Below are positions 12,371 through 54,403 of a stretch of 64,000 nt of DNA, piece by piece. Made by a program: the position numbers and the translations under genes. The DNA comes from Lepidodermella squamata (lineage: Eukaryota > Animalia > Gastrotricha), in NCBI GenBank assembly GCA_047495785.1, contig JBLDXI010000014.1, positions 248,001 through 312,000 on the forward strand, given 5' to 3'. Under the pieces are notes generated by a model. The model was not told the origin of the DNA and did no database searches. It was given only the letters and a program-made list of their open reading frames with translations. The first letter of the stretch is position 1. Every line of letters begins with the position of its first letter.

Positions 12371-12469
12371 TGTTCATTCCATAAATAGAACAACCGGAAT
12401 GCTCCACGTAGCAGTCTTTATTCCTAAGCCTAATTTACACTTTTTGGTTTCTGCCAAAAAAGCCAAATA

Positions 12470-13525
12470 ATGTCAAGCTCAGCGAAATCTTGGGGAGATT
12501 TCAAAGATCCAGATTCCATTAAATCCTATGTTAATGGTTTAGCCGGAAAGTTCAACTCGAAAGTTGAACGAGCTGTTCCTTTAACAGGTGGCCTTATCAA
12601 TCATGTCTTCCGGATTTACTTTGAAGACACGAGTACTGCTGTTTTCAAACACTACCCAAGCCGTATTGTTACGGAAATAGAATTGGTCGAAGTTATCCAA
12701 GATCGTTACTACGTCGAGAAATCAGCTCTCGAACAGTTGGCTACAATTCCTAGCCTGCAATCTCTGAAAATTCAAGCTCCTAAAATTTTGCATTCAGATG
12801 ACCCCAATTATGTTCTGATAATGCAGGATTGTGGGGAGAAGACTGTCTTGTTATTCGATTTCCTCAAAAACGACTACAATCCGAACAACGAAATATCGGT
12901 GGAAGAAAACAAGCTCCTAATTACAGATATCATCGATCTATTAGCGTGCGAAATCAACAAATTTCTCAAAATTGTCGCAACAGCTATAACAACACAAGCA
13001 AACGAGGCTGAATTTGTAAACCCATCAAGCTGGACGGCCATGAGGACGTTTCGGCCAACCATGCAGAATAGACAGGCGAAAGCTCTGGACCTAGAAAACG
13101 AACTCGAATACTACCTGCAGAATCAAAAGCCGATGAATCCGCCCGAGAACGCCGTTTTCGTTCACGGGGATTTGTGGCCGAACTCTGTAATGGTTGATGT
13201 TGAAAATAAGACTTTTTGGCTGATAGACTGGGAAGTGGCTCGATTCGATTCACCCACACAAGACCTGGAGCAGTTTTGCGCCAATCTGTGGGTTATGATG
13301 CAAAACGAGACGATGTGGGATTCAAACAGGATTCGCTACCTGCTTGATCGGCTTCAGCGCGAATACTTTGGTTCCTCTTCTAGTGACTGGCGATCAGCCG
13401 ATAGCGACTACGGCAAAGCAAACTTTGTACTTTGGGTATTGATTCTGCTATATTTCAAACACTGGGGTGCCGAAAATCCACGAGAACTCGTTCTAAAGGC
13501 TATTGAGGAAGTCGAAGGGCTGTGA
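12470..13525 (+). CDS. APH/choline kinase-fold small-molecule phosphotransferase (methylthioribose-kinase-like), copy 1
   Basis: Intronless 351 aa. LTGGLINHVFRI, VFK, LIMQDCG, HGDLWPNSVMV, IDWE. Confidence 0.85.
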   Translation: MSSSAKSWGDFKDPDSIKSYVNGLAGKFNSKVERAVPLTGGLINHVFRIYFEDTSTAVFKHYPSRIVTEIELVEVIQDRYYVEKSALEQLATIPSLQSLKIQAPKILHSDDPNYVLIMQDCGEKTVLLFDFLKNDYNPNNEISVEENKLLITDIIDLLACEINKFLKIVATAITTQANEAEFVNPSSWTAMRTFRPTMQNRQAKALDLENELEYYLQNQKPMNPPENAVFVHGDLWPNSVMVDVENKTFWLIDWEVARFDSPTQDLEQFCANLWVMMQNETMWDSNRIRYLLDRLQREYFGSSSSDWRSADSDYGKANFVLWVLILLYFKHWGAENPRELVLKAIEEVEGL

Positions 13526-13748
13526 TCCAATATCCCGCGTGCGGGCGAATGAAATAGAGGGCAAATTTCTTTCATTCACGATACTTGTTAATAAAATTCT
13601 GTCGATTCTTGCACGAAACTAAAATTCTGATTTCTATAATCAACGTCTTACAGTAGAGTCCAAATCGAAGGTTCAAGATATCGGTGTTAATGACCTCGAT
13701 CTAGGGGCTCGATCATTGTTTCTCTGTTTACTTTTTCCGGCTTATTAA

Positions 13749-14757
13749 CCCTCTAATGCCGAAAACGTGTATACTCAAACTGGCGCTATTCACCTTGAAT
13801 TTTCATACTTCCCGATTTTTGCCGGCCTAGCCGCTTGGCAATTTTGTAGTTGGCCATCAGGGCTCCCCGATTCCGAAAACCGCAAAGTCGGCGCGTTGAT
13901 TGCGTAACACAGGTGAGTGCGCGCGTCAGGTGGTCGGATGATTTGTGTGTATACTCAATCAATTTTTTGTATAAACACATGGCGGCCGCCCGGACGGCCG
14001 GTTTTGAGTGAATGATTAGACTCCGTTGTGTGTAAAGTCAATTGCCAATTGAGTTTACTCATACCAGGCGCCGATATCTATATTTACAGTCGTTTTTTAA
14101 ATGTTTTGTGGTAAATAATAATTATTCGGGGTGACCAGCTTTTAGGTCGCGGTCTAGTGTTGCGCCACACACTGTTGCGTAACAACAATCAGCTCGCAAT
14201 TGTTGCTCAATACTGAGCTCTTTCTCACAATGCTTGCTCGGAAATAAAAGGCAGCCAGGCAGAGCGCAAAATAACACATCAATATTACTTAGTTTAAGGT
14301 TCTATCTGAATACGATTAGTCTTTTTGCACAAAATTGCCCATACCTGTCGCGGCTTCGCAGCGATTTTCGTCAGCGCGCCGCAAGCCCGCCAATTGCCGC
14401 ATTTACCTGTGCTGTTGTTTAGCTGCTGGTCGTGCCGGCGAATCATGTCGACCTTTGATTTAGGCTACTTACGGCAATTTCTTCAATTTTTTCAGATTTT
14501 GAGAATTTCATGAATAAAATACATGTGATGTTGCGCTCTTCCTGAGTTAACTCAAGTGCGTATTTATACAATTTTTTTAGCACGAGTAAACTCAATTGGT
14601 ACAAGTGTATACTCAGTTTCATAATTCAAAGTCCAAAAAAGGAGGTCCCGGTTGAGTATACACACGTAGATAGCTGTATATACTCATTTTGAGTCAGTTT
14701 TGACCGATTGAGTAAACTCAGTTTGTATAAAGCCGAGAAGCTGCCGGCATTAGAGGG
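13749..14757. mobile_element. non-autonomous piggyBac-type element (MITE), 1009 bp
   Basis: Perfect 13-bp TIRs CCCTCTAATGCCG (13749-13761) / CGGCATTAGAGGG (14745-14757), TTAA on both sides (13745-13748, 14758-14761). Multiple internal GTATACTCA/GAGTAAACTC motifs in both orientations. No transposase ORF. Confidence 0.9.
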
Positions 14758-14915
14758 TTAACTTTGACCCACGCTGAAAGTGAAGATATGGTATCAAGGA
14801 CGATGCCCTATCATACTGATAAGCCAACAAAGCCTATTTGTCCTACATATAGAATAAACGGAACAATCCGTAGCCTTAGCATATTTTATAATTATCAGCT
14901 TCTCATTGGGCCAAA

Positions 14916-15968
14916 ATGTCCAGCACAGCTAAAACTTGGGAAGATTTCAAAGATCCGGATTCCATTAAATCCTATGTTAATGGATTAGCTGAAGCCGGGA
15001 TATTCCATTCGAAATTCGAACGAGCTGTTCCTTTAACAGGCGGCCTAGTCAACCATGTTTCACGGATCTACTTTGAAGACGCGAGCACTGCTGTTTTCAA
15101 ACACTACCCTCGCCGCATTTTTGTAGAGAATCAAGAGTTTGAAGGTTCTCAAGAACGCTACTTCGTCGAAAAATCAGCTCTCGAAAAGTTGGCTACCATT
15201 CCTAGTTTGCAGTCGTTGAAAATTCGAGCCCCAAAAGTTCTTCATTCAGATGACCCCAATTATGTTCTGATAATGCAGGATTGTGGGGAGAAGACAGTCA
15301 TGCTGTTCGATTTCCTCAAAAATGACTACATTCCGAACAAGGAACGAACGGCTGAAGAAAACAGGCGCATTATAACAGAGATGATCGATCTATTAGCGCA
15401 TGAAATCAACACATTTCTTAAAATAATTGCAAGTGAAATCACAAGCCTGGCTGAATTTGGAAACCCAGCAAGCTTGCGGGCCATGGAGAAGTTTCGGCCA
15501 GGTCTGCAGATCGGACAGGCAAAAGCTCTCAACTTGGAAAAAGAGCTGGAATACTATCTGAAGAACCAACGCGATTTTAAACCACCCGAGAACGCTGTTT
15601 TCATTCATGGCGATTTTTGGTCAAACTCGATCTTGGTAGATGTTGAAAATGAGATGTTTTGGGTGATTGACTGGGAAATATCTCGATTTGATTCTCCAAC
15701 AGAGGATTTGGATCGGTTTGGGACCAATTTGTGGGTTATGATGCAAAACAAGACGACGTGGGATTCAAACAGGATTCGCTACCTGCTTGAACGGCTACAG
15801 CTCGAATACTTCGGGTCCTCTTCTAGTGACTGGCGATTAGCCGATGGCGACTACGGCAAAATTAACTTTGTTCTATGGGCGTTGATTCTGCTATATTTCA
15901 AACACTGGGGTGCCGAAAATCCACGAGAAATCGTTCTGAAGGCTATTAAAGAAGTCGAAGGGTTGTGA
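14916..15968 (+). CDS. APH-fold phosphotransferase, copy 2
   Basis: Intronless 350-aa paralogue. LTGGLVNHVSRI, HGDFWSNSILV, IDWE. Confidence 0.85.
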   Translation: MSSTAKTWEDFKDPDSIKSYVNGLAEAGIFHSKFERAVPLTGGLVNHVSRIYFEDASTAVFKHYPRRIFVENQEFEGSQERYFVEKSALEKLATIPSLQSLKIRAPKVLHSDDPNYVLIMQDCGEKTVMLFDFLKNDYIPNKERTAEENRRIITEMIDLLAHEINTFLKIIASEITSLAEFGNPASLRAMEKFRPGLQIGQAKALNLEKELEYYLKNQRDFKPPENAVFIHGDFWSNSILVDVENEMFWVIDWEISRFDSPTEDLDRFGTNLWVMMQNKTTWDSNRIRYLLERLQLEYFGSSSSDWRLADGDYGKINFVLWALILLYFKHWGAENPREIVLKAIKEVEGL

Positions 15969-16562
15969 TCCCATGAGTGGACGAATGAAATACGGAAAAA
16001 TTCTATCATTCACGAAACATTATATCAAAATTCCACCGATTCCTGCTCGTTGATAGTGCTTGAGATTTCAATATTGAACTTTTTCAAATTTTCAGTAGCG
16101 TAAAAATCGAAATTCCAATGCAAATTATCGGCGCATCGCAAGATAGGAAATCATTTTTTAATATTTAATATCACTGATTCTTTGATCAATAAAATATGCG
16201 GTTACTCAATAAAATCTCAATTAAAAAAAGGTACCAGTAAAATTCTCACAGGTAGTTCAGCAAATTTCGGATTAGATTTGAGAGCTCTCTTAACTAATTC
16301 AAAATTTGCTGGACATGCATAATCCTGCAAGATTTTCGGCCTTGGAAGCACAGTTTTCGACAGTAAGGCTGAACTATGGATTGAACCTATCCTCACATGG
16401 CCACCAGGTGCTTCATTACACAATATGTTGAGTGAGCTCACCCACCCACTTTGATAGCATAATCTCTTATCGCTACGTTAGTCCACTGCTTTTCTCAATG
16501 GCTTCACTCATTCATCACATATTTTATTTTTTATAATAATAGGTTTTTTTCTAAGCGAGAAG

Positions 16563-17630
16563 ATGTTGCCAGTAGCTCAATCCGATACTGAGTTTAAAGA
16601 TTCAGACTCCGTTGTATCATTTGTCAACGGCTTAGTCGACGCCGGGAAGCTTCAGTCGAAAGCTGAACGAGCAGTTTCTTTGACTGGTGGCCTTTGCAAC
16701 TACGTATTTCGGATTTATTTTCAAGATGCGAGTACCGCTGTTTTCAAGTATTTCCCATCACGTATTATTGGACAAGTTGACACCGTCGAAGTTCCTCAAA
16801 ATCGTTACTACGTCGAGAAAGCAGCTCTTGAGAAATTGGGCAGCGTTCCCAGCTTGCAGGCTTTGAAATTTCGAACCCCTAAAGTGCTTTATTCAGACGA
16901 CAGTTTGTACGTTCTGATAATGCAAGATTGCGGTGAGAAGACGGTCATGCTGTTCGATTTCTTGAAAAAAGACTTCGTTCTTAACAGCCAACTATCGGCT
17001 GAGGATAACGAGTTGCAAATCAAGGCGATGATCGATTTATTTGCCAGCGAAGTCAGCAAATTTTTGAAACTCATCGCCAGCGACTCGGGAATCACTACCC
17101 ATACGCACCAGGCCGAATTCGCCAACCCGACGAGTTGGCAGGCCCTGCAATCGTGGAGGCCGGCGATGCAAGACCAGCAGGCGAAAGCGCTCAACTTGGA
17201 AAAAGAGCTCGAATACTACCTGAAGAATCAACGCGATTTGAAACAACCTGAGAATGCTGTATTCGTCCACGGGGATTTGTGGCCAAATTCTGTATTGGTC
17301 GATGTTGAAAATAAGACATTTTGGTTGATAGACTGGGAGGTGGCTCGATTCGATTCACCAACACAGGACCTGGAACAGTTCGGCGGCAACTTGTGGATTA
17401 TGATGCAGAACGAGACGATGTGTGACACAGCTCGAATTCGATACTTGTTTCAACGACTGCAACTGGAATATTTGGGTTCTGTCGCCCGTGATTGGCGGTT
17501 GGCCGGTGGCGACTACGGCAAAATTAACTTTGTGTTATGGGTGTTAATTCTGATTTATTACAAACATTGGGGCATTGATAATCCACGAGAGCTAGTATTG
17601 AAAGCTATCAAAGAAGCTGAAGAGCTTTAA
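16563..17630 (+). CDS. APH-fold phosphotransferase, copy 3
   Basis: Intronless 355-aa paralogue. LTGGLCNYVFRI, HGDLWPNSVLV, IDWE. Confidence 0.85.
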   Translation: MLPVAQSDTEFKDSDSVVSFVNGLVDAGKLQSKAERAVSLTGGLCNYVFRIYFQDASTAVFKYFPSRIIGQVDTVEVPQNRYYVEKAALEKLGSVPSLQALKFRTPKVLYSDDSLYVLIMQDCGEKTVMLFDFLKKDFVLNSQLSAEDNELQIKAMIDLFASEVSKFLKLIASDSGITTHTHQAEFANPTSWQALQSWRPAMQDQQAKALNLEKELEYYLKNQRDLKQPENAVFVHGDLWPNSVLVDVENKTFWLIDWEVARFDSPTQDLEQFGGNLWIMMQNETMCDTARIRYLFQRLQLEYLGSVARDWRLAGGDYGKINFVLWVLILIYYKHWGIDNPRELVLKAIKEAEEL

Positions 17631-17723: not shown

Positions 17724-18408
17724 CTATTGCTTGAGAATTTCACTGATCACCGTTTTCATCCTCGCAGTTATGTCCAAATCGAAAATTTCTACGAACGGAA
17801 TTTCAAGGCGTTTCAAAATCTCGACCATTTTAGCGGTGAGCAGTTTTGCTTCCTCCAACGAGCTGATCATTCTGATACAGTCCTCAGCAATGCATCCCGG
17901 GTGCGGATGAATCACGAATATCAAGCTGGATCGATAGCTGAAAGAACAAAAATGCCATTAGAGTCATTTTTCAACTCGTTCCAATAAACCAACTGGTCAA
18001 TGTCTTGCTCAAATCCAGATCTTAGCATAAGCTGATCGGCACTTTCTCGTCCAAAGAAAAACTCCTCGTACATTATAGGATCGATTCCAGATCGGTCGAA
18101 CAATGCTAATTTGTTCTTGTGATTTTCGATTTCACGATGCTGAGCGGCAAGAATGTCGAATTGCAACTGTTTAAAACACTCTGGATGCAAATGGGGCGGG
18201 CAGAAGTCTTCGCGCCTTAGCTGCGATTTCTCAATCACTCGACGCGCAACTTCGGTAACAACCTGTGGAAATAACCCAGAATTTATCATTTTATTCGATA
18301 AAAAAGACAGTGATGTACAGTCATCGAAGGAAGAAGCTTCGCCACTTCGTTGACCAGTGTCGTTTTACCGGTGCTGTGCGAGCCGCAAATGAAAATATGC
18401 CTCGACAT
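17724..18408 (-). CDS. NadR/Ttd14-like (AAA_28) P-loop nucleoside/nucleotide-kinase-fold protein, copy A
   Basis: Exons 18408-18319, 18262-17994, 17937-17724 give MSRHIFICGSHSTGKTTLVNEV...VVTEVARRV...LQFDILAAQ...LFDRSGIDPIMY...EDCIR. The Walker A exon is missed by the ORF track. Confidence 0.85.
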
Positions 18409-18721
18409 TTTAGATGGAAGTTTTGCTACAGAGAAATAATTTGTATCGCCCAGTTCGAACGACTTGCAATCGTGAGGTGCAACACAAGATCATTAGCTGC
18501 GGTCTTTATTTATTACACCGAGATGTGCCGCCAGCGAAACGTGGCCCTGACTTGCAATAAAATTATCGCACTGCCTCACTCCGCGCACTAATTATTACTA
18601 GATGTAACTTTTGGATAATGACGCTCAGATCAAACCAAATACTCCTTTAATTGACGCTTTATCGCTCTTAATATCCACGATAATCCTTCAGACAGCGGCT
18701 AAAATTATCTTTCATAACATT

Positions 18722-19495
18722 TTATTGTTGGGCTATACCATTTAATAGTTTATCAAATATCACCACGTTTGATTGATCGCTATTTACCTCCGCTGTGGCA
18801 TTTCTTCGCCTTGCAATTTCCGCTAAGACAATTTCAACCCGGCGTCTCAAGTCCAAGCATTTGATTTCGATGAACTGCAAGTCGAAGCGATTTAGAATTT
18901 CGATCAGTTTGCTAGTTAATAGTTCTGCTTCTTGCACAGAGCTGATCATTCTTATTTCATCCTCTCGTATGCACTCCGCTTGCGGATGAACGACGACAAT
19001 TAAGCTGGAGCGATAGCTGCAAAGACAGCCGTTATATGCTTTAAAATCTCGTAGAAACAATAACTTACTGGGTAAGGTCCTGTCTAAATTCCGGTAACGA
19101 AGCCAGTCGCTCGAAACTATCAGGGCCCAGGTAGAATTCGGCGTACATTAGGGGGTCAATACCTCGATCGTAGATAGCTATTGACTTCTCGGAATTTTTC
19201 CCGATCTCGAAATGTTGAGCTCTCAGTATGTCTGCTTGAAGTTGCTCGAAAACTTCACGATGTAAATGGGGCGGGCTGAAGTCTTCACGCTTGAGATTTG
19301 ACCTGTTAATAACGCGCCTGGCTACCTCAGTCACAACCTGTAATTTTGCGAAATTTGACTGAGCTTTTTTCGAATTATTAGTTGAATTCTTACGGCAGCT
19401 GAAGGTAACGCCTTCGCCAGTTCGTTCAACAGCGTGGTTTTTCCGGTGCTATGAGCTCCGCAGATGAAGACATGCAGGGGATGAGAGTCGCACAT
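18722..19495 (-). CDS. NadR/Ttd14-like (AAA_28) P-loop kinase-fold protein, copy B
   Basis: Exons 19495-19394, 19337-19069, 19016-18722 give HVFICGAHSTGKTTLLNEL...VVTEVARRV...LQADILRAQ...IYDRGIDPLMY...EDEIR. Intron positions are the same as in copy A. Confidence 0.85.
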
Positions 19496-19831
19496 TGCGG
19501 CTTTGTTAACACTGATTCAAGGGCGGCATTCTACGGCTTATAGTGGAACGATGTGACGTGTGGTATACTAGCTGGGTATTCGATCCACGCGTGAGTCGAG
19601 GCTAGAGTCCTATACGAATACGCCCGTCTCTTATACGTTTTGTAATATGAATAATTCCTATGGATAAATTATGCATCACGTCGTGTGTATTTTTTATGTT
19701 ATCTACTCGGTTACTAATCTTTTTTATAAGTTGGCTCCACTTAATCGTTATTATACCTACACCACGTAACAAGTATTAGAAACCCCACCAGCCAGTTTAA
19801 TGATTCATCCGTCATTTCTGTAGGCAACAAA
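19496..19831. promoter_or_regulatory. probable bidirectional promoter between the AAA_28 gene and the RdRP-helicase gene
   Basis: 336 bp between divergent ATGs. Contains TGACGTG (~19554) and an acceptor TTTCTGTAG at 19822 that implies a 5' UTR intron. Confidence 0.5.
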
Positions 19832-22800
19832 ATGTTGAAATGTAAGACTAATTGTTTGTGCCGATTTTGCGGCGAAAAGCCAGAGGTTTTGGTCATTCGT
19901 CAAACGAGCGAAACTGCTTCGAAATCGCCAGGAATCATCAACATTGAGGTTTTGAGGTCGTCGCCGCTGATACCACCTTCTGACAGCGAAGACAGTGATT
20001 CGTCGAGTAAGCGACAACCAAGCGTTCACGACTTCACCCTCAAAGCAAAATGGGTCGAGGATCGCCCGTGCTGTCCGTTATACGCGAAATACCCCGATAA
20101 AACCTTCGCGAAGATTCGATGCGAAGCTCAGAATGGAATCTCCGAACTAATCGCTAGCTTTCTCAACAATGGAATTAAGGTGGAGTTGAACTCAAGTCGT
20201 AAGGACTTTAAATTTTTCGGCTGCAGCGCTTCTCAAATGCGACAGCGAACATGCATTCTTTACGACTCTTCCCTTGGCGATTGGAAGAGTATTGCCCTGT
20301 CATTCGGCCATTTCGAAGAAATTAAGACGGTTGCTAAATTTTCTGCAAGACTTGGTCTTCTTTTATCTTCAAGCATGAACCTGGAAAATGAGATTTTCCT
20401 AAAAGAGACTCAAATTGATAGAATCGAAGATATCGAAAGAAATGGCTACACATTCACCGACGGATGTGGCCACGTGTCCCCTGAAATCGCCCTGAAAATC
20501 ATGAAAGCTCTATGCTCGAAAAAATCGTTGCTAAAGCCATGGTGGTATGAAACCCAAAAATTTCCCTACCCATCGGTTTTCCAGATCCGTCTCATGGGTT
20601 GCAAGGGCGTGATTGCGCTGAAACCAAGCCTGCAAAATTGCATCCAGATTCGACCTTCGATGGAGAAGTTCCGGTGGAAACTCGACCCTCCTCATCGGTT
20701 AGGCATCTGTGATAATGGATTCTCGCGTCCGTATGAGTTCGGTAAATTGAACAAGCAGTACATCATGGTTTTATCGGCCCTTGGCATTGCGGATTCGGTC
20801 TTCCTGGAGATTCAGGAAAACTACTACTCCGAGCTTCAGCGGCTCGAAACCGACCGCACCCTCGCTGTCAAGTACCTCTGCCTAGAAGATCGTTGGGATT
20901 TGGTCGAGCGGGTATTTCAGAAGCAAGTGATTGATGCTGAAACCGCTGAAATTCTCAAATCGATTAAAATGCGAGTTGTCGAAAAATCGAATGCTGAAAA
21001 GAGCAAGCTGGAACGGCTCAACATCCCGATTTGGAAATCTCGCAATATTTTCGGGATAAGCGATCAAAGTGGGAAGCTGCAAGAGGGCGAGGTGTTTCTG
21101 CAGGTTACAATCGATCGAAAGCCGCAAATCATCGAAGATGGCCAGTTTGTCGTAGTCACCAGGTCGCCTTGCCATTCACCTGGCGACATTCGAATCCTGA
21201 AATGCCGGTTTATACCCGAACTTCAACATTTGGTCGATTGTGTTGTATTTCCGACAAATGGCCAGAGACCTCACCCAGACGAATGTTCTGGAGGTGACCT
21301 TGATGGTGACAAGTTCTTCGTTTGTTGGGACGACCGGCTCATCCCGGAGCAAAACGCCGAGCCAGTCAATCTCAGCTCGAAGGTCGTCGCGAAAAAAGTC
21401 GACCAAATCGACCAGGGAGATCTTATTCTCGAGTTTGCGAAATACAACGCAAGTTTATTGGGAACTGTGACTAATCTATTCAATCGCTGGGCGGATGCTT
21501 CAGATAACGGGGTCAATTCTGACATTTGCAAGGTCCTACGATTGAAGTGCAGCAGCGCGGTTGACGCGGCTAAAACTGGCGATCCGGTCAAAATCGAACC
21601 AGCTTATCGGCGCGTGCCGCTCGCAAATCGGAATCACGTATGGATTAGAATGACTGAAATCGCTGATTCATACGCGTCCAGGAAGTTGGAGGTTGCTTCG
21701 ACCGAGGACGTTAAAGGCATTGGTCGCGAAGAAATTGAACGAATTTTGGATGACCGATACCCTACTCTGTCCGAGTATCAATTGTATCGCCTGGTCGTGA
21801 AATGGTGCGATGCTCATGACGGCGGATTGCTGGAAAAATTGTGTCGGAAAATTGATTTCTCGCGATTCACTCGGGAAGAGCTGCAAAGCCTCAGAATTGA
21901 CGTTGGTATCGAAAAAGCTAATAAGTTGAGTTCTGCGCTAAATTGGTCAACCCTACTCGAACCTGTTGATATCAGTGAAGCAATTGGAACTAGAAACCAA
22001 TCCGCTTGGTCTCTTTATTACGCAGATAGTTTGAATGAAACGACATGGGATGTTTTGGAGAGTTTTCTCAGTATTGATCTACCGAAAATGATTCTACTTC
22101 GCCCTGATTTCGACTTCGATGGAGTTGTGGGGCTGAAGATTCTGGACCCAGTCCTAACTGGACAAAGCTCCATTTCGAGGGATAGATTGACAGTTTTTTA
22201 CTTGGATCACAGCTTTTCCAACCGCCATGTCTTTCATCTTAACGAGGATTATGCAATAGATTTCGACCCGGAAAATCGGCGGCTACAGATCTATCAAGGG
22301 CAGTTGGCAAATTCATTCGTTTTTTTCAAAGATACAAAAGGAGTCGGCAATGTTTTGAGCGTGGCTGTCAACAAATTTGCAGGCATTGATCGAAGCTTGG
22401 TTGGTAGGGTGAATAAACGACCAGTCCTGAGGATTGAGCTGTACTGCGAAAAGCCGAGGAACCAATTATCAGGTCCGATTTGACATCGCCCACTGCAGTC
22501 TACTTTGACAACAGCTTCGTCAATCAAGGTCGAAGTAGTTAAGACGGAAAACGGCTTCTCCTTCTCCGATGAAGATTTCCCTCAACTTGGCGCAGAAGTT
22601 CCTCGAAAAGACGCTGCTGTTGGCGGAACTTTGTCAAGTGACTTGTACCGAAGACTAAACAAGCCTTTGCACAGTAAAGAAGAAGCTGCCAATTTGGCTA
22701 AGGAAATTTACACTTTTATCGAAGAAAAAAGCCAGAAATCTAAGGTTGATCTTTTCTCACGTTTCTAAGCTTTTGATTCAGTTATTGCCCTTCACCAGGA

Positions 22801-25452
22801 ACCCATCCATTTAGCGATTCAGCTTGTGAACTTCCTCGCCAGCTACGAACTTGTTCTGGAAAATTCTCAGCAATACGCAACATTGTGCTCGGCAATTTTT
22901 TCGGCCATTGACTTGTATGCTGATTCCAAAAATTGTTTCTCCATCGCCACTATCCGTGAAAATGGGTAAGGAATTGATTCTCGCATTGACATTTATTGAA
23001 TACGGCTGCGTAGCAGCGACAGTTCGAAAAATCGCCTGGTGTCTTTTTTCGAGGCGAAATTTGAAAGGTTAGCTTATACTTTCTTGAGAAAATCGCGTAA
23101 AAATGGTAATTTTCTAGAATCAATGAGTCGATGAAGCGCATCGGCCTCGTCTTCTCCGCGAAAGATTGTTATCAAATTTTCAGGCGATTGCTTGAAAATC
23201 CACCAGAACACCAAACCTCGGTCGACATCATTAGCAGCTTGTTATTTCAAGGGAAAGAAAGTAAGAAATTGTGCAAAATTTAAACTCAGATAAAATCTCC
23301 AAATCACACTTTTAGAAACTTTCTTCCCGTTGGCGGCAGGCCGCTGGTCAAGCAGTGCATCCTATTTCTTGCATTGGGCTTGTTTGCTCACAATCGAAGC
23401 TTTGCAAGATCATTTCGACCAGTATCGAGAAATCATACTTCGCTCTAAAATTCAACTTGCCGTGGCTGAGATGGACGGTGATTTTAGCATGAATTAAATT
23501 GTATTCCAGTCATAATTCATAACTTATCCCCAGATAAAAGCGAAGCTCCCAAGGCTTGTAAGCTTCAGCTGATTCATCCCATAGTAGCAGCTTATTCGGC
23601 TGGCGAGGCCTTGATTATCAGCCCATCGGCAAGCGATTCAGAACCGTTTCAAGCCACTGTCATGGTTGAAATAGTTAGTGCTGACAAATCATCGGATCGG
23701 TACACGGTTCGGTCTTCTGGAGATGAAATTCTTCCAATGAAGCAACTTGCAACGTACCGAGTCGATGTTGTTCCAAACATCACTCCATTCGATCGGCAGC
23801 TGAAAGCTTTGATGCACCTGTGTTACCAAGACCATTCTGCTGAAGTTGAATTGGCTGTTCCACCTGTCGCCAACTGCCTAATCAATTCATTTCGCAACGA
23901 ATCGGTTGAAAATGACCATGAACCTTCGATTACTCCGTTAGAAGCAACGGAAGACTTAGATGGAATGAATCCCAGCCAGAAGAAAGCGATTAGAGATGCT
24001 GTTCAACGCCCGGTTACTCTAGTCCATGGTCCTCCTGGAACCGGCAAAACACGGGTTGCCGCTTCCATCGTGAAAAATTGGGTCAAAGCTGGTTTTACCC
24101 CGGTTTTGTGCGTGGCCGAGACAAACTTTGCCGTCAACAACCTTGCAGAAAAGCTGATTGACAGCGGTTTCCCCGAAGACGGCCTGTTACGTGTCAGTGC
24201 TGATGGTCAAATCCCAGCATCGCTCGAAAAGATTGCCCTCGAGACTGTATACAGGGCGAAATTCAAAGAATCAAACAAGTACCGCATTGCTGAGCATATG
24301 CTCGACTCTGCCAAGGTTCAGAAGCTAATTCGGGGCAGTAAGGTTGTTTTTGTAACTTGTAAAGGAGCTGGTAGTAACAAGCTTTCGTTGACCGAGAACG
24401 GCCGCGGTCTTTTCAAGGCGATTCTTGTCGATGAGGCTGCTCAAGCTCTCGAGCCAACTGTTCTCATCCCCTTGGCACAAAGCCACTGCGAACGGCTGTG
24501 CCTTGTCGGAGACGACCGTCAGCTTCCGCCTTTGGTGAAAGTTGATAAAATCAAAGCGGAGCTATCTAAATCGCTTTTCGAACGGTTGAAAACCGGGCGA
24601 TCTACCCTTCTGGACACTCAATACCGTATGCACCCTGACATTGCCCGATTTCCGAACGAAAATTTCTACGACGGGAAGCTTCGAAATGGCGTTAATTCGG
24701 TCGATCGACCTCTACCGCGAGGGTTCAATTGGCCTAGCCAGAAATCGCCAATTTGCTTCATCAACGTGGATGCAACTGAGCCTGAAAGATGTAGCCAAGG
24801 TTCTAAGATCAATGCGAAGGAGGCAGATGCGGTTGTTGAAGTTGTTAGACAGCTACTTCAAAGCTCCGAACTTCAGCCTGAGAACATTGGAATCATCACA
24901 CCTTACAGTGGACAGGTAGGAATAAAAGTTTTATTAACAATTCTTCTCTAAAATTCTGCGCAGGAGCGACATCTGAAGACCCTTCTGAAGGACAAGAAAT
25001 TGGCCATCGATGTACGCACCGTTGATGGTTTCCAGGGTCAAGAGCGCGACGTCATTTTAGTTTCACTTGTGCGAAATCGCCAAAGCATTGGTGAGGCATC
25101 ATTTATTACTAATACTTAGCATTCCTAATTTTATCGATTAATCCACAGGTTTTCTTGACGATGATCGGCGGATGAATGTGCTACTTACACGAGCTAAACG
25201 TGGTCTGATCGTTTTTGGCTGTAAGAAAACCCTTCAAGATAACAGCGATTCAAAATGGGCTAGATGGATCAACGATATCTGGAAATCTGGCTTATATCTA
25301 GGTACTGATTTCACTCTGCATATCAAATAAATCGATCGATTTAGTTTGGCATTAATTTTTCAGATATGCAACCTGTGCAACGTCCAGCAACCGGTCATGG
25401 ACGTCCCTCGGCGCCTAACAACAGTGGTACTCGCAAGTATTATCGTCGATAA
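19832..25452 (+). CDS. cellular RNA-dependent RNA polymerase fused to a Upf1/DNA2-NAM7-like SF1 helicase (~1715 aa)
   Basis: Exons 19832-22472, 22515-22744, 22799-22965, 23014-23067, 23118-23260, 23316-23477, 23534-24915, 24964-25090, 25149-25301, 25364-25452 (5148 nt; all GT-AG, phases consistent). RdRP motifs: FFGCSASQMR, FTDGCG, FQIRLMGCKG, TRSPCHSPGD, GGDLDGDKFFVCWD, SAVDAAKTG. Helicase motifs: HGPPGTGKT, TNFAVN, DEAAQ, VGDDRQLPP, QYRMHP, ITPYSGQ, TVDGFQGQE, RMNVLLTRAK. AATAAA at ~25517. Confidence 0.88.
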
Positions 25453-25601: not shown

Positions 25602-28600
25602 TCAATAAACAGCGGATGAACGGAGAGTGAACTGTCTCGCCCGCGTATGAATAGCCGGCAATCCGATCGTTTTGATTCGGGCTGTTTCAATCGCATCGGC
25701 CATGCGAGTTAAATTCATACCGCGCAGCGTTTCAACCAACTGCATAACTGTGACGTTTTTGTTAAGGCGGCGCCATTTCCGCAGAACCTGGTACGCAAGT
25801 TTGCGCAGCTCGGCAGTTGCGTCCGTCGACGTCGCGCCAGTGCCGGCACTTGGCACTACGTACGTTGTCCGAGGCACTGGCGCTCGGTCTTTATCGTCGA
25901 CCCAAACGTGCGGGTAGTTGGGGTAGGGCGGCGTAGTCACCTCGCGGCAACCGAGTTGCAACAAATCGCGCTTGCGTTTCGCAGCCGACCTTGACGGCTC
26001 GAACGGCAGGCGCCGGTACAACTCAGGTAAACTCTGACCGATCTCCTGAGCCACGAGAGCCAGAGCTGACGTCATCAACTGGTCAGTATCTGCTGGTTCG
26101 TAAGATGTCACCGAGATGTTGTTGGTATTCAGCGCAATTCCCTTTTCGAGGGCTTGCTGCTGCTGATAGAAAATTCGCTTCAAAATGTCTGGATTGCGCT
26201 TTAGATCGATAATTCTGACAACAGCCCGAATTTTCGCCTCGGTTAGCTTCAACTCGTTTTCAGCCTCCGAAGCAAGTCTATCACGATTGAAAGAAAATAT
26301 TTCAAAGCTATGTGAGATTGGAGTGAAATATTACTTTGTGTAACGTTTGGCGTCGGTCAGTTCTCGGCGACCGATTTCCAAGTTAGCTTCCTTGGCCTGA
26401 GAGATGCTGACAACTTCAGATTCGAGCAGCTGCATTTTCAACTTTATGGACCTAATTTTCTTCCTGGTAGCTGAAAGTTGCCGCTGAAGTGTCGCAGCGT
26501 TATTAATCATCTAAAATCAAGACAATTCAATTTTAGGTGAAATAATAGTGGAAAAATTTGCTAACATGACTTTCTACGCCATTGCCATCCCTCTCGGCGT
26601 CTTGAATGTCTCGAGTAGTCGCTTGGAATTTAGCGCCCAAATTAGACTCTTGGTCTTCGAGCGCTTCAAGAATGCGTTGCAGCCGCTTGCCCTGACCCGC
26701 CCGGCTCATGCCGTCGTCGTCGATCAGCGACGCTTTGAACTCGCGCCGCATCGCCATTCGCGTCAGCTCGTCCTTTTTGCGCCGATCCACCTTAAATTCA
26801 TCGCCCATATCCTTTTGCCTCTGCATCAATTGATTGAGCGTTTCCCGCAGCCTTGCTTCATACCGCTCGTCTTCAATCAGCCAGTCCTTCAGTCGTTTGA
26901 CAATAAATTCCATTTGCTCAACGCCCTCCTCGCACATGAGCTTTGCAGTGAGAATGTCGTTTTCGCAAATCAGTAAAATCGCGCAGTTTTTCTCCTTGTT
27001 TTCGATAGTATCCCGCGCCTTGCTAAACCGATGCAGAGCGGCTTCGATGGAGCGCTGGAAAGTATTTATCATGTTGTTGTATGACCAAACGCAGTCGACT
27101 TGAACGTTTTCTATTTCGTGAATAAAGCTGGTACAGTAGCGGGAAACAGCGCCTGAGATCGCCTGAAGATTAGGCCGCATCAACTCGTAAATCTGTATGA
27201 ATTCGTCGATTCGCTCGCTAAAATCGAAAAGCATATACCTCATCACAGAGATTTGAGGCGAAACTTACATTATTCGAAGCGACTTGGTGAGCAAGCTACG
27301 AGTGTCGAACTGCCGATATGGGTACTGCTTCGATTCGAGGAGTGTCTGTAGGTGGCTTCGTAGTTGGGCTAACGATTGAATTTTTCGAAGCTCTGTCACT
27401 TCGGCACTAAATTTCTTCGACGGCGGACCTCCATGCATGATAGATGGTTGCTGGCTGAGCACGGTGCGTGATGGCTTTGTCGACTGCTGGGAAGGCAAGC
27501 TCTCCTGAAGATGCGATCTATAACAAATTCCGCGAACCAATTTAAAATTCAGTTTGCGAAAAATCAGCTGGGTGTGATCAAGTGTTATGATTATAAATCG
27601 GCGTGATAGTGTCATGCGAGTTCTTACTTTTGCGAGTACATTGCAGTCACATATTTATCAATATCGGTAGCTGAAAATTGTAAGCAAATGAAGCGCTGGT
27701 TATACTTTCAAACACAATATAAAGCCAACGGATAACCTTTAATTTTAATTACTGTTTTCTGCCATCTAACTCTGTTATTCGATCTGGGCAATTCACTATA
27801 AATTCGTTATTTTTTAGATTGCAAAATAGCGTTATTTTAGATGCGAATGAAAGCTATGAAAGCGACTCTCAGTGAAGGATTTACTTGGAAAATGAAGTTC
27901 TCTGGTGGTGCAATTGCGCCGCCTGAAGGCCTGCATTCGACATCTGCGCTCCCAGTTTTTTACCCTTTTCATTGGTCGATTTTGAATTCACGGCATCGCT
28001 AATCACGTGATCAATCTCGGTCGAGTAGTAATCAATATCAGTGGCTATACGAGTAGTCATACCAACCTCTACAACCGATAAATTTTATAATATTTCCAAA
28101 CTTACGTATGCCTCCCTCTCGCCCGTTATTCTTCATCCACAGCTGTCTGAAGGTCGAGATTTGGGACTCGCAAGTTTGAAGCTGGGCCATTGCTCGGCGA
28201 CGTACTGTTTTAAGGTTACTCGGCGGCACCCCGCCTGGCCCAATCTCGATCATGCTCATGACTGGGTCGATTTTCGGCAACGGAGTTGCACCTCCTATCT
28301 CACTTGCGCCTTCGACAAGGGTGACAGCAGGGCCACCAATAAGCGCGCCTCCGGGGGTCATAAACGGCGGCACGGCTGACATGGCTCGATTCGATTGGGT
28401 TTCGAAAATAGACTGCCGTTTTATGCTTTGGCGCCGAACCGCCTCAGGAATCACTGGCTCTGGCGTTTTGACGGCTTTTTTACTCGGTTTGATTGCTAAG
28501 AATCGAACCTGGTTTTTGATATGGAAATAGCGCTGGCGCTGGTCTGCGTTAAGAGATCCCACTAAAAAGGAAGAAATTCGAAAAACATTGAGCTGATTTT

Positions 28601-53140: not shown

Positions 53141-53539
53141 AATTCAGAGAATCTCCAACAAAACGTTGCATAGCAAAAGCTTTACTGAGCAAATTTTGAT
53201 AAATCGGAGATTATTTTTTCAGCATGCGTCAAGTTGTCCTATCTACAAAACTAATAGAATACTTGATAGGCAATTGGTACATCTCTCCCCCAATTATAAT
53301 AGCTCAGTCTCAGTTTTATTGCACCAGACAAGCACCCGCATTTCACGATACAAAATATTTCGCACGGGAATTTTCTAGGTAGTTAAGACTTCTTGCTTCA
53401 TTTCCCCGTTCGCAACTGATACCGCATTTCCAGAGTCGATAAGGATGCGATATCAAGGGCTAAAAAATGGCAGAGGTTTAACTCTAACAGAAAATTGTCC
53501 CCAAGTTTTCAACTCAACCAGCAGTTTTACTGATTCGTT

Positions 53540-54403
53540 ATGATACAGCAGTATTCTTTCTTCGCAGTAGCCTTGGTGGGCCATCTATTTATTGCTTCGG
53601 CCAAGTCAGGTGGCTTTCCCTGCAAAGATGGTTACTGCGCCTTGGATGACGATGGCACAGAAAGAGCAAATCTGATTGCGCTGAACTCGACGAGAGGCTT
53701 CAAGCTGCTCACCGATGGCAGGACTCACGATTTTTTCCAGATGATGAATAATTTCGAAACACAGATTGAGGCGGATAAATGCGGCTTCGGAACAATGGCG
53801 ACTATCCTAAACTCCATGCACATTTACAAGCCTCAACTGTACTGTGTTGATGTCGACAAGCCAAGTGATTGCTTTCACCGTTTCAGGCAGGATAACTGGC
53901 TGACAGACCCGTGCATCAACTCGATAAAACCGACCAACTGTGAAGATAGGGGCTTGACTCTGGCTGAAATGGCTGCAATATATCGCACGTGTTTCAAATT
54001 GAAAGTAACCGAGCATTCTAACAAAGATACGTCGAATAGTACGTACAAGGAACTTTTCCGGCAATCATTCAAGGCGAACGTGTTTCTTGCTGCCAACTAT
54101 AACCGTGCGAAGATCTACCAGTCAGGAGGTGGTCACTGGAGTCCAATAGCAGCTTATAACGTTGAATCCGATAGGGTGCTAGTTCTAGACGTAGCCCGGT
54201 ACAAATACCCGCCTGTATGGGTGAAAACTACCGATATGATCGACGCGTTGGACGCTAACCGTGGCCTTCTGGAAATATTCGGGCCATCTTACCCCGAGAA
54301 GGTCAGCATCGAGTGTTCATCGGCCCCATCCTACCGAAAAACTCACTCAGCGAAAATTGTGACTGGAGCCATTTCCTTATTAGCGATGGTGATGTGCTTC
54401 TAA
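53540..54403 (+). CDS. phytochelatin synthase catalytic-domain-only protein with signal peptide and hydrophobic C-terminus
   Basis: Intronless 287 aa. FETQIEADKCG (catalytic Cys), GLTLAE, NYNRAKIYQSGGGHWSPIAAYN (His), VLVLDVARYKYPPVWV (Asp), RG. Confidence 0.9.
   Translation: MIQQYSFFAVALVGHLFIASAKSGGFPCKDGYCALDDDGTERANLIALNSTRGFKLLTDGRTHDFFQMMNNFETQIEADKCGFGTMATILNSMHIYKPQLYCVDVDKPSDCFHRFRQDNWLTDPCINSIKPTNCEDRGLTLAEMAAIYRTCFKLKVTEHSNKDTSNSTYKELFRQSFKANVFLAANYNRAKIYQSGGGHWSPIAAYNVESDRVLVLDVARYKYPPVWVKTTDMIDALDANRGLLEIFGPSYPEKVSIECSSAPSYRKTHSAKIVTGAISLLAMVMCF

Follow-up and report, generated by a model that had tools for sequence, protein, structure and literature searches.

The locus analysed here raises the question of whether two small kinase genes serve an RNA-dependent RNA polymerase (RdRP) gene from which they are divergently transcribed, or whether they are simply its neighbours. 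It lies in a stretch of 64,000 nucleotides of the gastrotrich Lepidodermella squamata, referred to below as the window. Comparison with related loci leads us to regard the kinase as a likely overlooked partner in an ancient RNA-defence module, which is probably antiviral.

Gene structures and the shared spacer

The first-pass annotation had described two tandem three-exon P-loop genes divergent from an RdRP-helicase gene, with 336 bp between the ATGs, and both the structures and the spacing were recovered. The proximal kinase, K1 (221 aa), is encoded on the minus strand by exon 1 at 19394..19495 (ATG at 19495, Walker A GAHSTGKTT, splice predicted), exon 2 at 19069..19337 and exon 3 at 18722..19016. 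The distal kinase, K2 (190 aa), is on the same strand, with exon 1 at 18319..18408 (Walker A GSHSTGKTT, splice predicted), exon 2 at 17994..18262 (EVARR and DRSGIDP..Y motifs) and exon 3 at 17724..17937 (lid D..R motif and stop). The four introns, each GT..AG, measure 52–56 nt. Splice joints were taken from contigs of X1, a presumed RNA run that covers K1 and, not covering K2, is uninformative on the latter. X1 contigs cover K1 exon 2 and join it to exon 3 (19016/19069); the phase-2 intron at this place has a position common to the kinase of a coral-like orthologue. Intron 1 of K1 is predicted: one X1 contig reads through it, and its joint is not among the X1 joints listed.

Over 182 aa the two kinases share 60% identity, and we infer that K2 arose from K1 by local duplication. 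Their divergence (dN 0.31, dS 2.2), together with 11 synonymous versus 2 non-synonymous allelic differences in K1 among the 40 rows listed out of 154, points to selection on the kinase. When the K2 ORF was used as query in a word-based search for homologues, none of 9 candidates matched at E 0.01, and 20 pattern matches in viral contigs included no relative. Three aminoglycoside-phosphotransferase-like (APH/EcKL-like) kinase genes flank K2. They were rejected as members of the module, having been found in none of 21 related loci.

The RdRP-helicase gene is on the plus strand, and its nine-exon model of 1729 codons terminates exactly at 25452. Exon 1 (19832..22744) encodes the RdRP domain (about 20123–21604; Pfam PF05183, 388.5 bits) with its catalytic DLDGD kept (21296–21310), followed by predicted BACK-like helices (about 21692–21934) and, from a predicted model, a TLDc domain (about 21935–22453). 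Exons 2–5 (22799–22965, 23014–23067, 23118–23260 and 23316–23477) form a linker region. Exons 6–9 (23534–24915, 24964–25090, 25149–25301 and 25364–25452) encode a UPF1-like SF1 helicase and a short tail, the helicase exon matching AAA_11 at 131.6 bits and AAA_12 at 112.6 bits. Although Pfam TLD was undetected at the sequence level in the polymerase protein, the TLDc model (pLDDT 88) superposed on 4acj with a Z of 14.3 (rmsd 3.0, 153 aa); the six top rows of this search were all TLDc proteins, and the next unrelated row had a Z of 5.3. The polymerase is thus predicted to bear a BACK-like and TLDc domain as well. PADLOC returned just generic helicase and P-loop matches.

In this haplotype the reading frame contains a TGA (22481..22483, codon 884 of 1729) between polymerase and helicase, which is likely a nonsense allele or an assembly error. 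Homologues align across the site without a gap, and five introns downstream of it are spliced in X1. The joints seen are 22964/23013, 23260/23316 and 23476/23533 in the linker region, with a loose end at 23116, and 24912/24961 and 25089/25148 in the helicase part; intron 22745–22798 and the last intron are predicted only. Alternatively, the TGA could lie inside a 42-nt intron (22473–22514), but no such joint is among the 15 X1 joints listed out of 23.

The 336-bp spacer between the two ATGs (19496..19831) is likely a bidirectional promoter shared by K1 and the RdRP-helicase. It contains no TTC-N3-GAA (GAS-like) site, and across the window this pattern is found at chance level (32 versus 31.8 expected). 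Three spacers of coral-like loci have two TTC-N3-GAA sites in common, about 27 nt apart, which may be read as STAT/GAS sites; one of them falls within 22 nt that do not differ among the three spacers, compared with 56% identical columns overall. No alignable DNA was found between the window spacer and the coral-like spacers. Another divergent gene pair occurs in the window at about 6601/7487. Head-to-head spacing alone is therefore unremarkable here, and the evidence beyond chance for the pairing comes from its conservation in other genomes.

Linkage and fusion in other genomes

Among metagenomic sequences 21 related loci were found, 16 of which have their best match in this RdRP subfamily, and 9 of these 16 extend at least 1.7 kb upstream. 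A divergent kinase was detected at E 1e-37 or better in 8 of these 9 informative loci, or in 7 of 8 distinct ones, as L011 and L012 are 99.8% identical. Three of the loci (L006, L007 and L008) are stony-coral-like, with the kinase head-to-head and ATG gaps of 1.38–1.42 kb. In L009, which is closest to fungal proteins, the gap is 186 bp, and the four others with a head-to-head kinase (L011, L012, L015 and L021) are closest to the basidiomycete protein P0035. The kinase was not found in the 2.3 kb upstream of octocoral-like L002, nor in the about 9 kb upstream of three loci that clearly belong to other RdRP subfamilies (L013, L014 and L020). In Antedon, kinase and RdRP are on contigs of identical size (40,927,303 nt), which does not imply adjacency.

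The two families are also joined in single proteins. Among the 150 best kinase relatives, 28 continue from an N-terminal kinase into an RdRP core of the same subfamily, a count inflated by the three fused sequences included in the search profile, and 19 of the 28 extend further into a helicase. Such fusions occur in the sponge Ephydatia, the acoel Symsagittifera and the diplonemid Rhynchopus, and a separate search yielded one from the hydrozoan Hydractinia. The survey thus bore out the proposal of a conserved kinase–RdRP link. Absence of fusion or linkage elsewhere had been named among the results that would speak against it, and this objection falls away because both were found. The idea that a fungal fusion is present here in split form was not borne out: AAA_28 was detected in none of the three named fungal RdRP-helicases scanned, and in the fungal-like loci the kinase has a gene of its own, head-to-head with that of the RdRP.

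Trees were built by fast methods without bootstrap, the IQ-TREE result being a quick tree, and the support values below are to be read as such. In both RdRP trees, the window RdRP clusters with RdRP-helicases of fungi and animals, to the exclusion of other RdRPs (support 100; FgRdRp5 not included), and the nearest RdRP in these trees is a Branchiostoma floridae protein with a core identity of 49%. K1 and K2 belong to a clade (support 97) that also contains the head-to-head kinase of coral and free-standing kinases from Antedon, Oscarella, oyster, mussel and sea spider, and the window RdRP is in a matching non-fused animal clade (support 99). In the RdRP trees, the fused proteins make up a clade apart that is mostly animal. 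This suggests that the head-to-head arrangement is the older state and that the fusion was more likely derived from it.

Micro-synteny is rarely conserved across fungi and animals. Divergent pairs are common in this compact genome, so adjacency in the window could in principle be chance; yet 7 of the 8 distinct loci that are informative, coral-like and fungal-like, show the same layout, and together with the fusions this makes chance extremely improbable. We consider it very likely that the kinase–RdRP linkage is old and selected, and likely that kinase and RdRP-helicase act in the same pathway.

Kinase family and its possible function

The Pfam profiles proposed for the locus (AAA_28, RdRP, AAA_11 and AAA_12) each matched part of it. 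The K2 ORF scored 34.3 bits on AAA_28 (PF13521, NadR/Ttd14 kinase domain), above the gathering cut-off of 27; the two K1 exon ORFs, scored unspliced, reached 20.5 (exon 2) and 19.1 bits, each alone below it. Orthologues P0051, P0062, P0081 and P0069 scored 54.9–73.9 bits. The best sequence match of the family is the NadR kinase domain, at about 18–21% identity. On TIGR01526 (NadR) the orthologues reached 20–41 bits against a cut-off of 341, with the kinase half alone matched, and K1 and K2, at only 190–221 aa, have no NMN adenylyltransferase domain. The motifs reported for the two kinases were present in part: GxHSTGKTT and EVAR occur in both, while DRxG.DP..Y describes K2 (DRSGIDPIMY) and K1 is one residue shorter at this place (DRGIDPLMY). 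The DRxxxDxxxY register is similar to the motif by which thymidylate kinases bind the base. In P0051 numbering, both proteins retain G8, K14, E32, R35, D85, R86, D89, Y93, D137, R140 and R177, so that Walker A, E-x-x-R, D-R and the lid arginines are intact.

A predicted model of the coral-type orthologue P0051 (pLDDT 91), standing in for K1 and K2, was used for fold searches. Its closest match was the NadR ribosylnicotinamide kinase 8x7f (Z 19.9, rmsd 2.4, 178 aa), followed by dTMP kinase (Z 16.5) and deoxyadenosine kinase (Z 16.1), and a second search agreed in placing the NadR kinase domain best. K1 and K2 are therefore predicted to be NadR-type P-loop kinases with the fold of NadR, thymidylate and deoxynucleoside kinases. 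A small nucleoside is the somewhat favoured substrate.

Published expression data for Fusarium graminearum bear on a possible co-induction. Its FgRdRp5 (FGSG_09076) is described in PMC11237814 as an RdRP that also has DEXDc and AAA_12 domains, and its log2 fold changes under four mycoviruses were −2.1/+4.8/+3.8/+3.4 (PMC4071046 Table S1). FGSG_09077, a neighbour that may be the kinase, changed by −1.3/+5.7/+5.3/+2.5 under the same four viruses, and none of seven other FGSG_09076 neighbours looked up in that table had such an induction pattern. Should FGSG_09077 be the kinase, kinase and RdRP-helicase would be co-induced by mycoviruses there. An antiviral or RNA-silencing role of the module seems to us somewhat more probable than not. 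Work on animals weighs against it: amphioxus is described as having several RdRPs, including one with AAA_12, and the corresponding passages report that an siRNA-like population was not found (PMC6396948). Small-RNA amplification is reported as missing in Nematostella (PMC12768352), and genes induced by cGAMP were not lowered there by STAT knockdown (PMC8713801).

The whole is best explained, at about even confidence, by a conserved, probably co-induced module in which the kinase supplies or primes the polymerase with a phosphorylated ribonucleoside. Virus infection would act on the shared promoter to co-induce the kinase and the RdRP-TLDc-helicase. The kinase would then phosphorylate a small ribonucleoside and hand over the product, which may supply or prime the polymerase, while the helicase would unwind the target RNA for copying into double-stranded RNA. 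A different and rather unlikely possibility is a regulatory role, with the kinase domain as a nucleotide-sensing subunit that turns the polymerase on when ATP or a nucleoside is bound and whose turnover is of little weight. The N-terminal fusion in the 28 relatives would suit such a subunit, as would the 6 of 27 fused-clade kinase domains that lack R35, R86 or R140 (tallied per column) although the domain is kept; these losses fit a non-catalytic role in some lineages. Against this, 10 of 10 examined members of the clade of the window, K1 and K2 included, keep each of ten conserved kinase residues (G8, K14, E32, R35, R86, D89, Y93, D137, R140 and R177). The first-pass annotation had also considered phosphorylation of RNA ends. 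A polynucleotide kinase acting on the 5′-OH ends of RdRP templates or products would belong to the same P-loop kinase class and would suit linkage and fusion to an RNA-processing enzyme, but the P0051 model matched polynucleotide kinase 4gp6 only at rank 47 (Z 10.2, rmsd 3.7, 151 aa), compared with Z 16–20 for NadR (19.9), thymidylate and deoxynucleoside kinases, and this reading is disfavoured as quite improbable.

Kinase and RdRP could also be separate effectors under one inducible bidirectional promoter; the kinase would then act on a small molecule, in NAD precursor salvage or detoxification, and not serve the RdRP. The nearest solved fold is a ribosylnicotinamide kinase, the three APH/EcKL-like kinases are next door, and 16 of the 150 best relatives, including one chytrid and one amoebozoan protein, are linked to cytochrome P450, which indicates that the family works outside RdRP contexts too. 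We nevertheless find independence doubtful, given that a whole clade joins kinase and RdRP in one protein, that the two trees show matching clades and that APH-like neighbours were found in none of the 21 loci. Bolder, and unlikely though worth stating, is an undescribed eukaryotic innate-immune module, retained as pair or fusion across fungi, sponges, corals and bilaterians. Its NadR-type kinase, induced by infection, would activate an uncommon nucleoside, such as a pyridine ribonucleoside or a modified one, which the RdRP-TLDc-helicase would use to prime, cap or terminate viral RNA copies. If true, this would give animal RdRPs a Dicer-independent job; PMC6396948 puts as an open question what makes many animals retain RdRPs when these show no sign of amplifying siRNAs. 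In fungi and invertebrates alike, the paired or fused kinase gives one RdRP subfamily a defining partner and a direct biochemical handle, and its substrate may reveal the job of the polymerase.

Comparison with known systems

FgRdRp5 and Branchiostoma BL02069 are like the window RdRP as modelled, with a C-terminal SF1 helicase/AAA_12, and FgRdRp5 is mycovirus-induced (PMC4071046); the passages describing the two proteins mention neither a kinase partner nor a TLDc domain (PMC11237814; PMC6396948). Their orthology to the window RdRP is judged from architecture and from other fungal and amphioxus proteins. The NadR kinase domain (PDB 8x7f, 6gye, 1lw7) resembles K1 and K2 in sequence, predicted fold, Walker A, E-x-x-R, D-R and lid D-x-x-R. 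Unlike NadR, K1 and K2 have no adenylyltransferase or HTH domain and are linked to an RdRP rather than to NAD salvage. In the S. pombe RDRC (Rdp1 and the Hrr1 helicase) and in Neurospora SAD-1/SAD-3, an RdRP works with an SF1 RNA helicase that is a separate protein. We know of no nucleoside kinase within these complexes. The window differs in that the helicase is predicted to be fused to the RdRP and a kinase is the linked partner. Both systems are named in the discussion of PMC11237814.

The vertebrate CMPK2 and viperin (RSAD2) genes are described as adjacent, inverted and co-expressed after interferon or infection (PMC10058120). Here too, a nucleotide kinase, of thymidylate-kinase-like fold, is divergent to an RNA-defence enzyme. 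The partner of CMPK2 is a radical SAM enzyme, whereas in the window it is an RdRP-helicase; moreover, the window kinase is NadR-type and its pairing with the RdRP, unlike CMPK2–viperin, extends over fungi and invertebrates and is known in fused form as well. The likeness is one of analogy and not homology of the system, and it hints at a second nucleotide-based antiviral strategy.

Structure of the locus

Gene models bore out the arrangement described in the first-pass annotation, in which two tandem three-exon kinase genes are divergent from an RdRP-helicase gene with 336 bp between the ATGs. The proximal kinase K1 (19495-18722, minus strand, three exons, 221 aa) and the distal kinase K2 (18408-17724, minus strand, three exons, 190 aa) are 60% identical, with a dN of 0.31 and a dS of 2.2. 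The K2 ORF exceeded the Pfam AAA_28 cut-off, while the K1 exon ORFs, scored separately, gave 20.5 and 19.1 bits. The RdRP-helicase ATG is at 19832 (plus strand, 336 bp from the K1 ATG), and a nine-exon model stops at 25452, as had been proposed. Introns are very small (48-62 nt in 12 modelled introns). Contigs of X1, the presumed RNA run, contained splice joints for K1 intron 2 and for five introns in the helicase half; they do not cover K2, which is uninformative either way. Among the K1 allelic differences listed (40 of 154 rows), 11 were synonymous and 2 non-synonymous.

Codon 884 of 1729 in the RdRP-helicase of this haplotype is TGA (22481-22483). Splicing from a weak donor could excise it within a 42-nt intron. 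This intron is doubtful because the 12 other modelled introns are all longer, homologues align ungapped across the site, and the joint it would leave was not among the 15 of 23 X1 joints listed. A DNA contig terminates at 22472, possibly a sign of a heterozygous site. The TGA is probably a nonsense allele or an assembly error; its removal by the intron is a tentative reading, and bypass by read-through is very unlikely.

The large gene encodes, in order, an RdRP domain (388.5 bits, DLDGD intact), BACK-like helices, a TLDc domain, a linker and a UPF1-like helicase. The TLDc region gave no match in a Pfam sequence scan. Its model (pLDDT 88) matched solved TLDc domains at structural match scores (Z) of 12-14, the next unrelated row being at Z 5.3. 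The BACK-like helices and TLDc domain lie at 21692-22453 (plus strand). V-ATPase-bound TLDc proteins made up four of the best six structural matches of the TLDc region, a hint from modelling that the RdRP-helicase might be targeted to a membrane or endosome.

Also in the window are genes of TGF-beta, GPCR and neprilysin type. At 12434-17630 (plus strand) lie three APH/EcKL-like (methylthioribose-kinase-like) genes in tandem, without introns and 65-75% identical, the last being tail-to-tail with K2; such genes were found beside the RdRP in none of 21 related metagenomic loci. The depth of the DNA run X2 at ∼13550-15100, a repeat between the first two of them, was 490-830 versus ∼100 elsewhere, and loose ends abound in this stretch. 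A coiled-coil gene convergent with the RdRP-helicase (25602-27654, minus strand) has introns spliced in X1, and the C-terminal part of its product weakly matches a Death domain (25.0 bits). A phytochelatin synthase gene (153 bits) is present at 53534-54403 (plus strand); this family has a patchy distribution in animals.

Conservation and history of the pairing

The pairing of the kinase with the RdRP-helicase is real and conserved. The 21 loci came from one metagenome scan; by best match 16 belonged to the RdRP-helicase subfamily, 3 clearly to other RdRP subfamilies, and 2 were short and ambiguous. Seven of the 16 were left out since they had <300 bases upstream or started inside the gene. A kinase lies divergently upstream of the RdRP in eight of the remaining nine, three stony-coral-like (gaps of 1.38-1.42 kb) and five fungal-like. 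Because two fungal-like loci are 99.8% identical, this amounts to seven of eight distinct loci. No kinase was found in the 2.3 kb upstream in L002, an octocoral-like locus, or in any of the three loci of other subfamilies. A phase-2 intron of the coral-like kinase coincides in position with intron 2 of K1 and K2, which fits vertical descent. Chance adjacency of the two genes is very improbable.

AAA_28 was also found, N-terminally, in 2 of 25 proteins from a search for longer RdRP relatives; a third fused case was degenerate. A profile of these three fused sequences and the window exons, whose composition biases toward fused forms, was run over 1.84 billion proteins. Among the 150 matches listed, the kinase ran on into the RdRP core in 28, and 19 of these also contained the helicase. 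Named fused proteins are from Hydractinia, Ephydatia, Symsagittifera and the diplonemid Rhynchopus. AAA_28 had been said to be fused to some fungal RdRPs; it was absent from all three named fungal RdRP-helicases scanned. A second fusion of the kinase family, to cytochrome P450, accounted for 16 of the 150 matches listed (P0064, P0095, P0125, P0126, P0139, P0159, P0162 and others), including Rhizophlyctis (chytrid) and Rhizamoeba (amoebozoan). The Anneissia japonica protein P0022 has two tandem RdRP domains and no helicase match.

Trees were built by fast methods without bootstrap or clade test, with other RdRPs as outgroup. The RdRP-helicase clade (fast-tree support 100) divides into a fungal group, head-to-head wherever the arrangement was visible, a non-fused animal group (99) with the window, amphioxus, crinoids and corals, and a fused group (99). 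The kinase tree repeats the three groups and places K1 and K2 in a clade (97) beside the coral head-to-head kinase. The simplest reading of these trees is that the head-to-head arrangement would be ancestral and that fusion arose once, so the window pair would not be a recent split; the earlier view of it as a split fungal fusion is thus disfavored. The diplonemid transcript (P0173), a fused kinase-RdRP-helicase grouped with the animal fused clade, has transfer, contamination or an older origin as candidate explanations.

Possible function of the pair

The kinase fold was modelled on P0051, the nearest orthologue of the window kinases (pLDDT 91). Its closest fold was that of the NadR ribosylnicotinamide kinase domain at Z 19.9, with thymidylate kinases at 16.5 and deoxyadenosine kinase at 16.1 next in order; polynucleotide kinase reached 10.2, and further kinase comparisons agree with this ranking. 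An RNA-end kinase is an improbable reading. All near-invariant kinase residues are retained in the alignment of K1 and K2. We hold with about even confidence that the genes form a module that infection would induce, in which the kinase would phosphorylate a small ribonucleoside and the polymerase would use the product. That the kinase is instead a nucleotide-sensing subunit is a minor possibility, as is the reading of the two genes as independent co-regulated effectors.

PMC4071046 reports that FgRdRp5 and its neighbour gene FGSG_09077, a candidate counterpart of the kinase, both rise under the mycoviruses FgV2 and FgV3 (about +4 to +6 log2), rise less under FgV4 and drop under FgV1, a pattern absent from seven other neighbours. 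Poly(I:C) and cGAMP are both reported to induce a Nematostella RdRP, possibly one of another subfamily. The coral-like kinase/RdRP spacers (L006 777-2192, L007 1734-3149, L008 2528-3907) have a conserved block in common, in which two TTC-N3-GAA sites lie ∼27 nt apart, one of them within a 22-nt run identical across all three. We take this motif to be a STAT/GAS-like consensus; the window's spacer has no such sites.

A plain siRNA-amplifier role is disfavored, since no siRNA-like RNAs were found in amphioxus (PMC6396948) and Nematostella is reported to lack small-RNA amplification (PMC12768352). No paper tying an RdRP-helicase to a NadR-type kinase was found in the literature searched, whose scope took in few subscription papers, and the pairing as a module is apparently unreported. 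The RdRP-helicase fusion itself has been published for FgRdRp5 (PMC11237814) and Branchiostoma BL02069. The CMPK2-viperin pair, as described in PMC10058120, is for the window's kinase and RdRP-helicase an analogy only.
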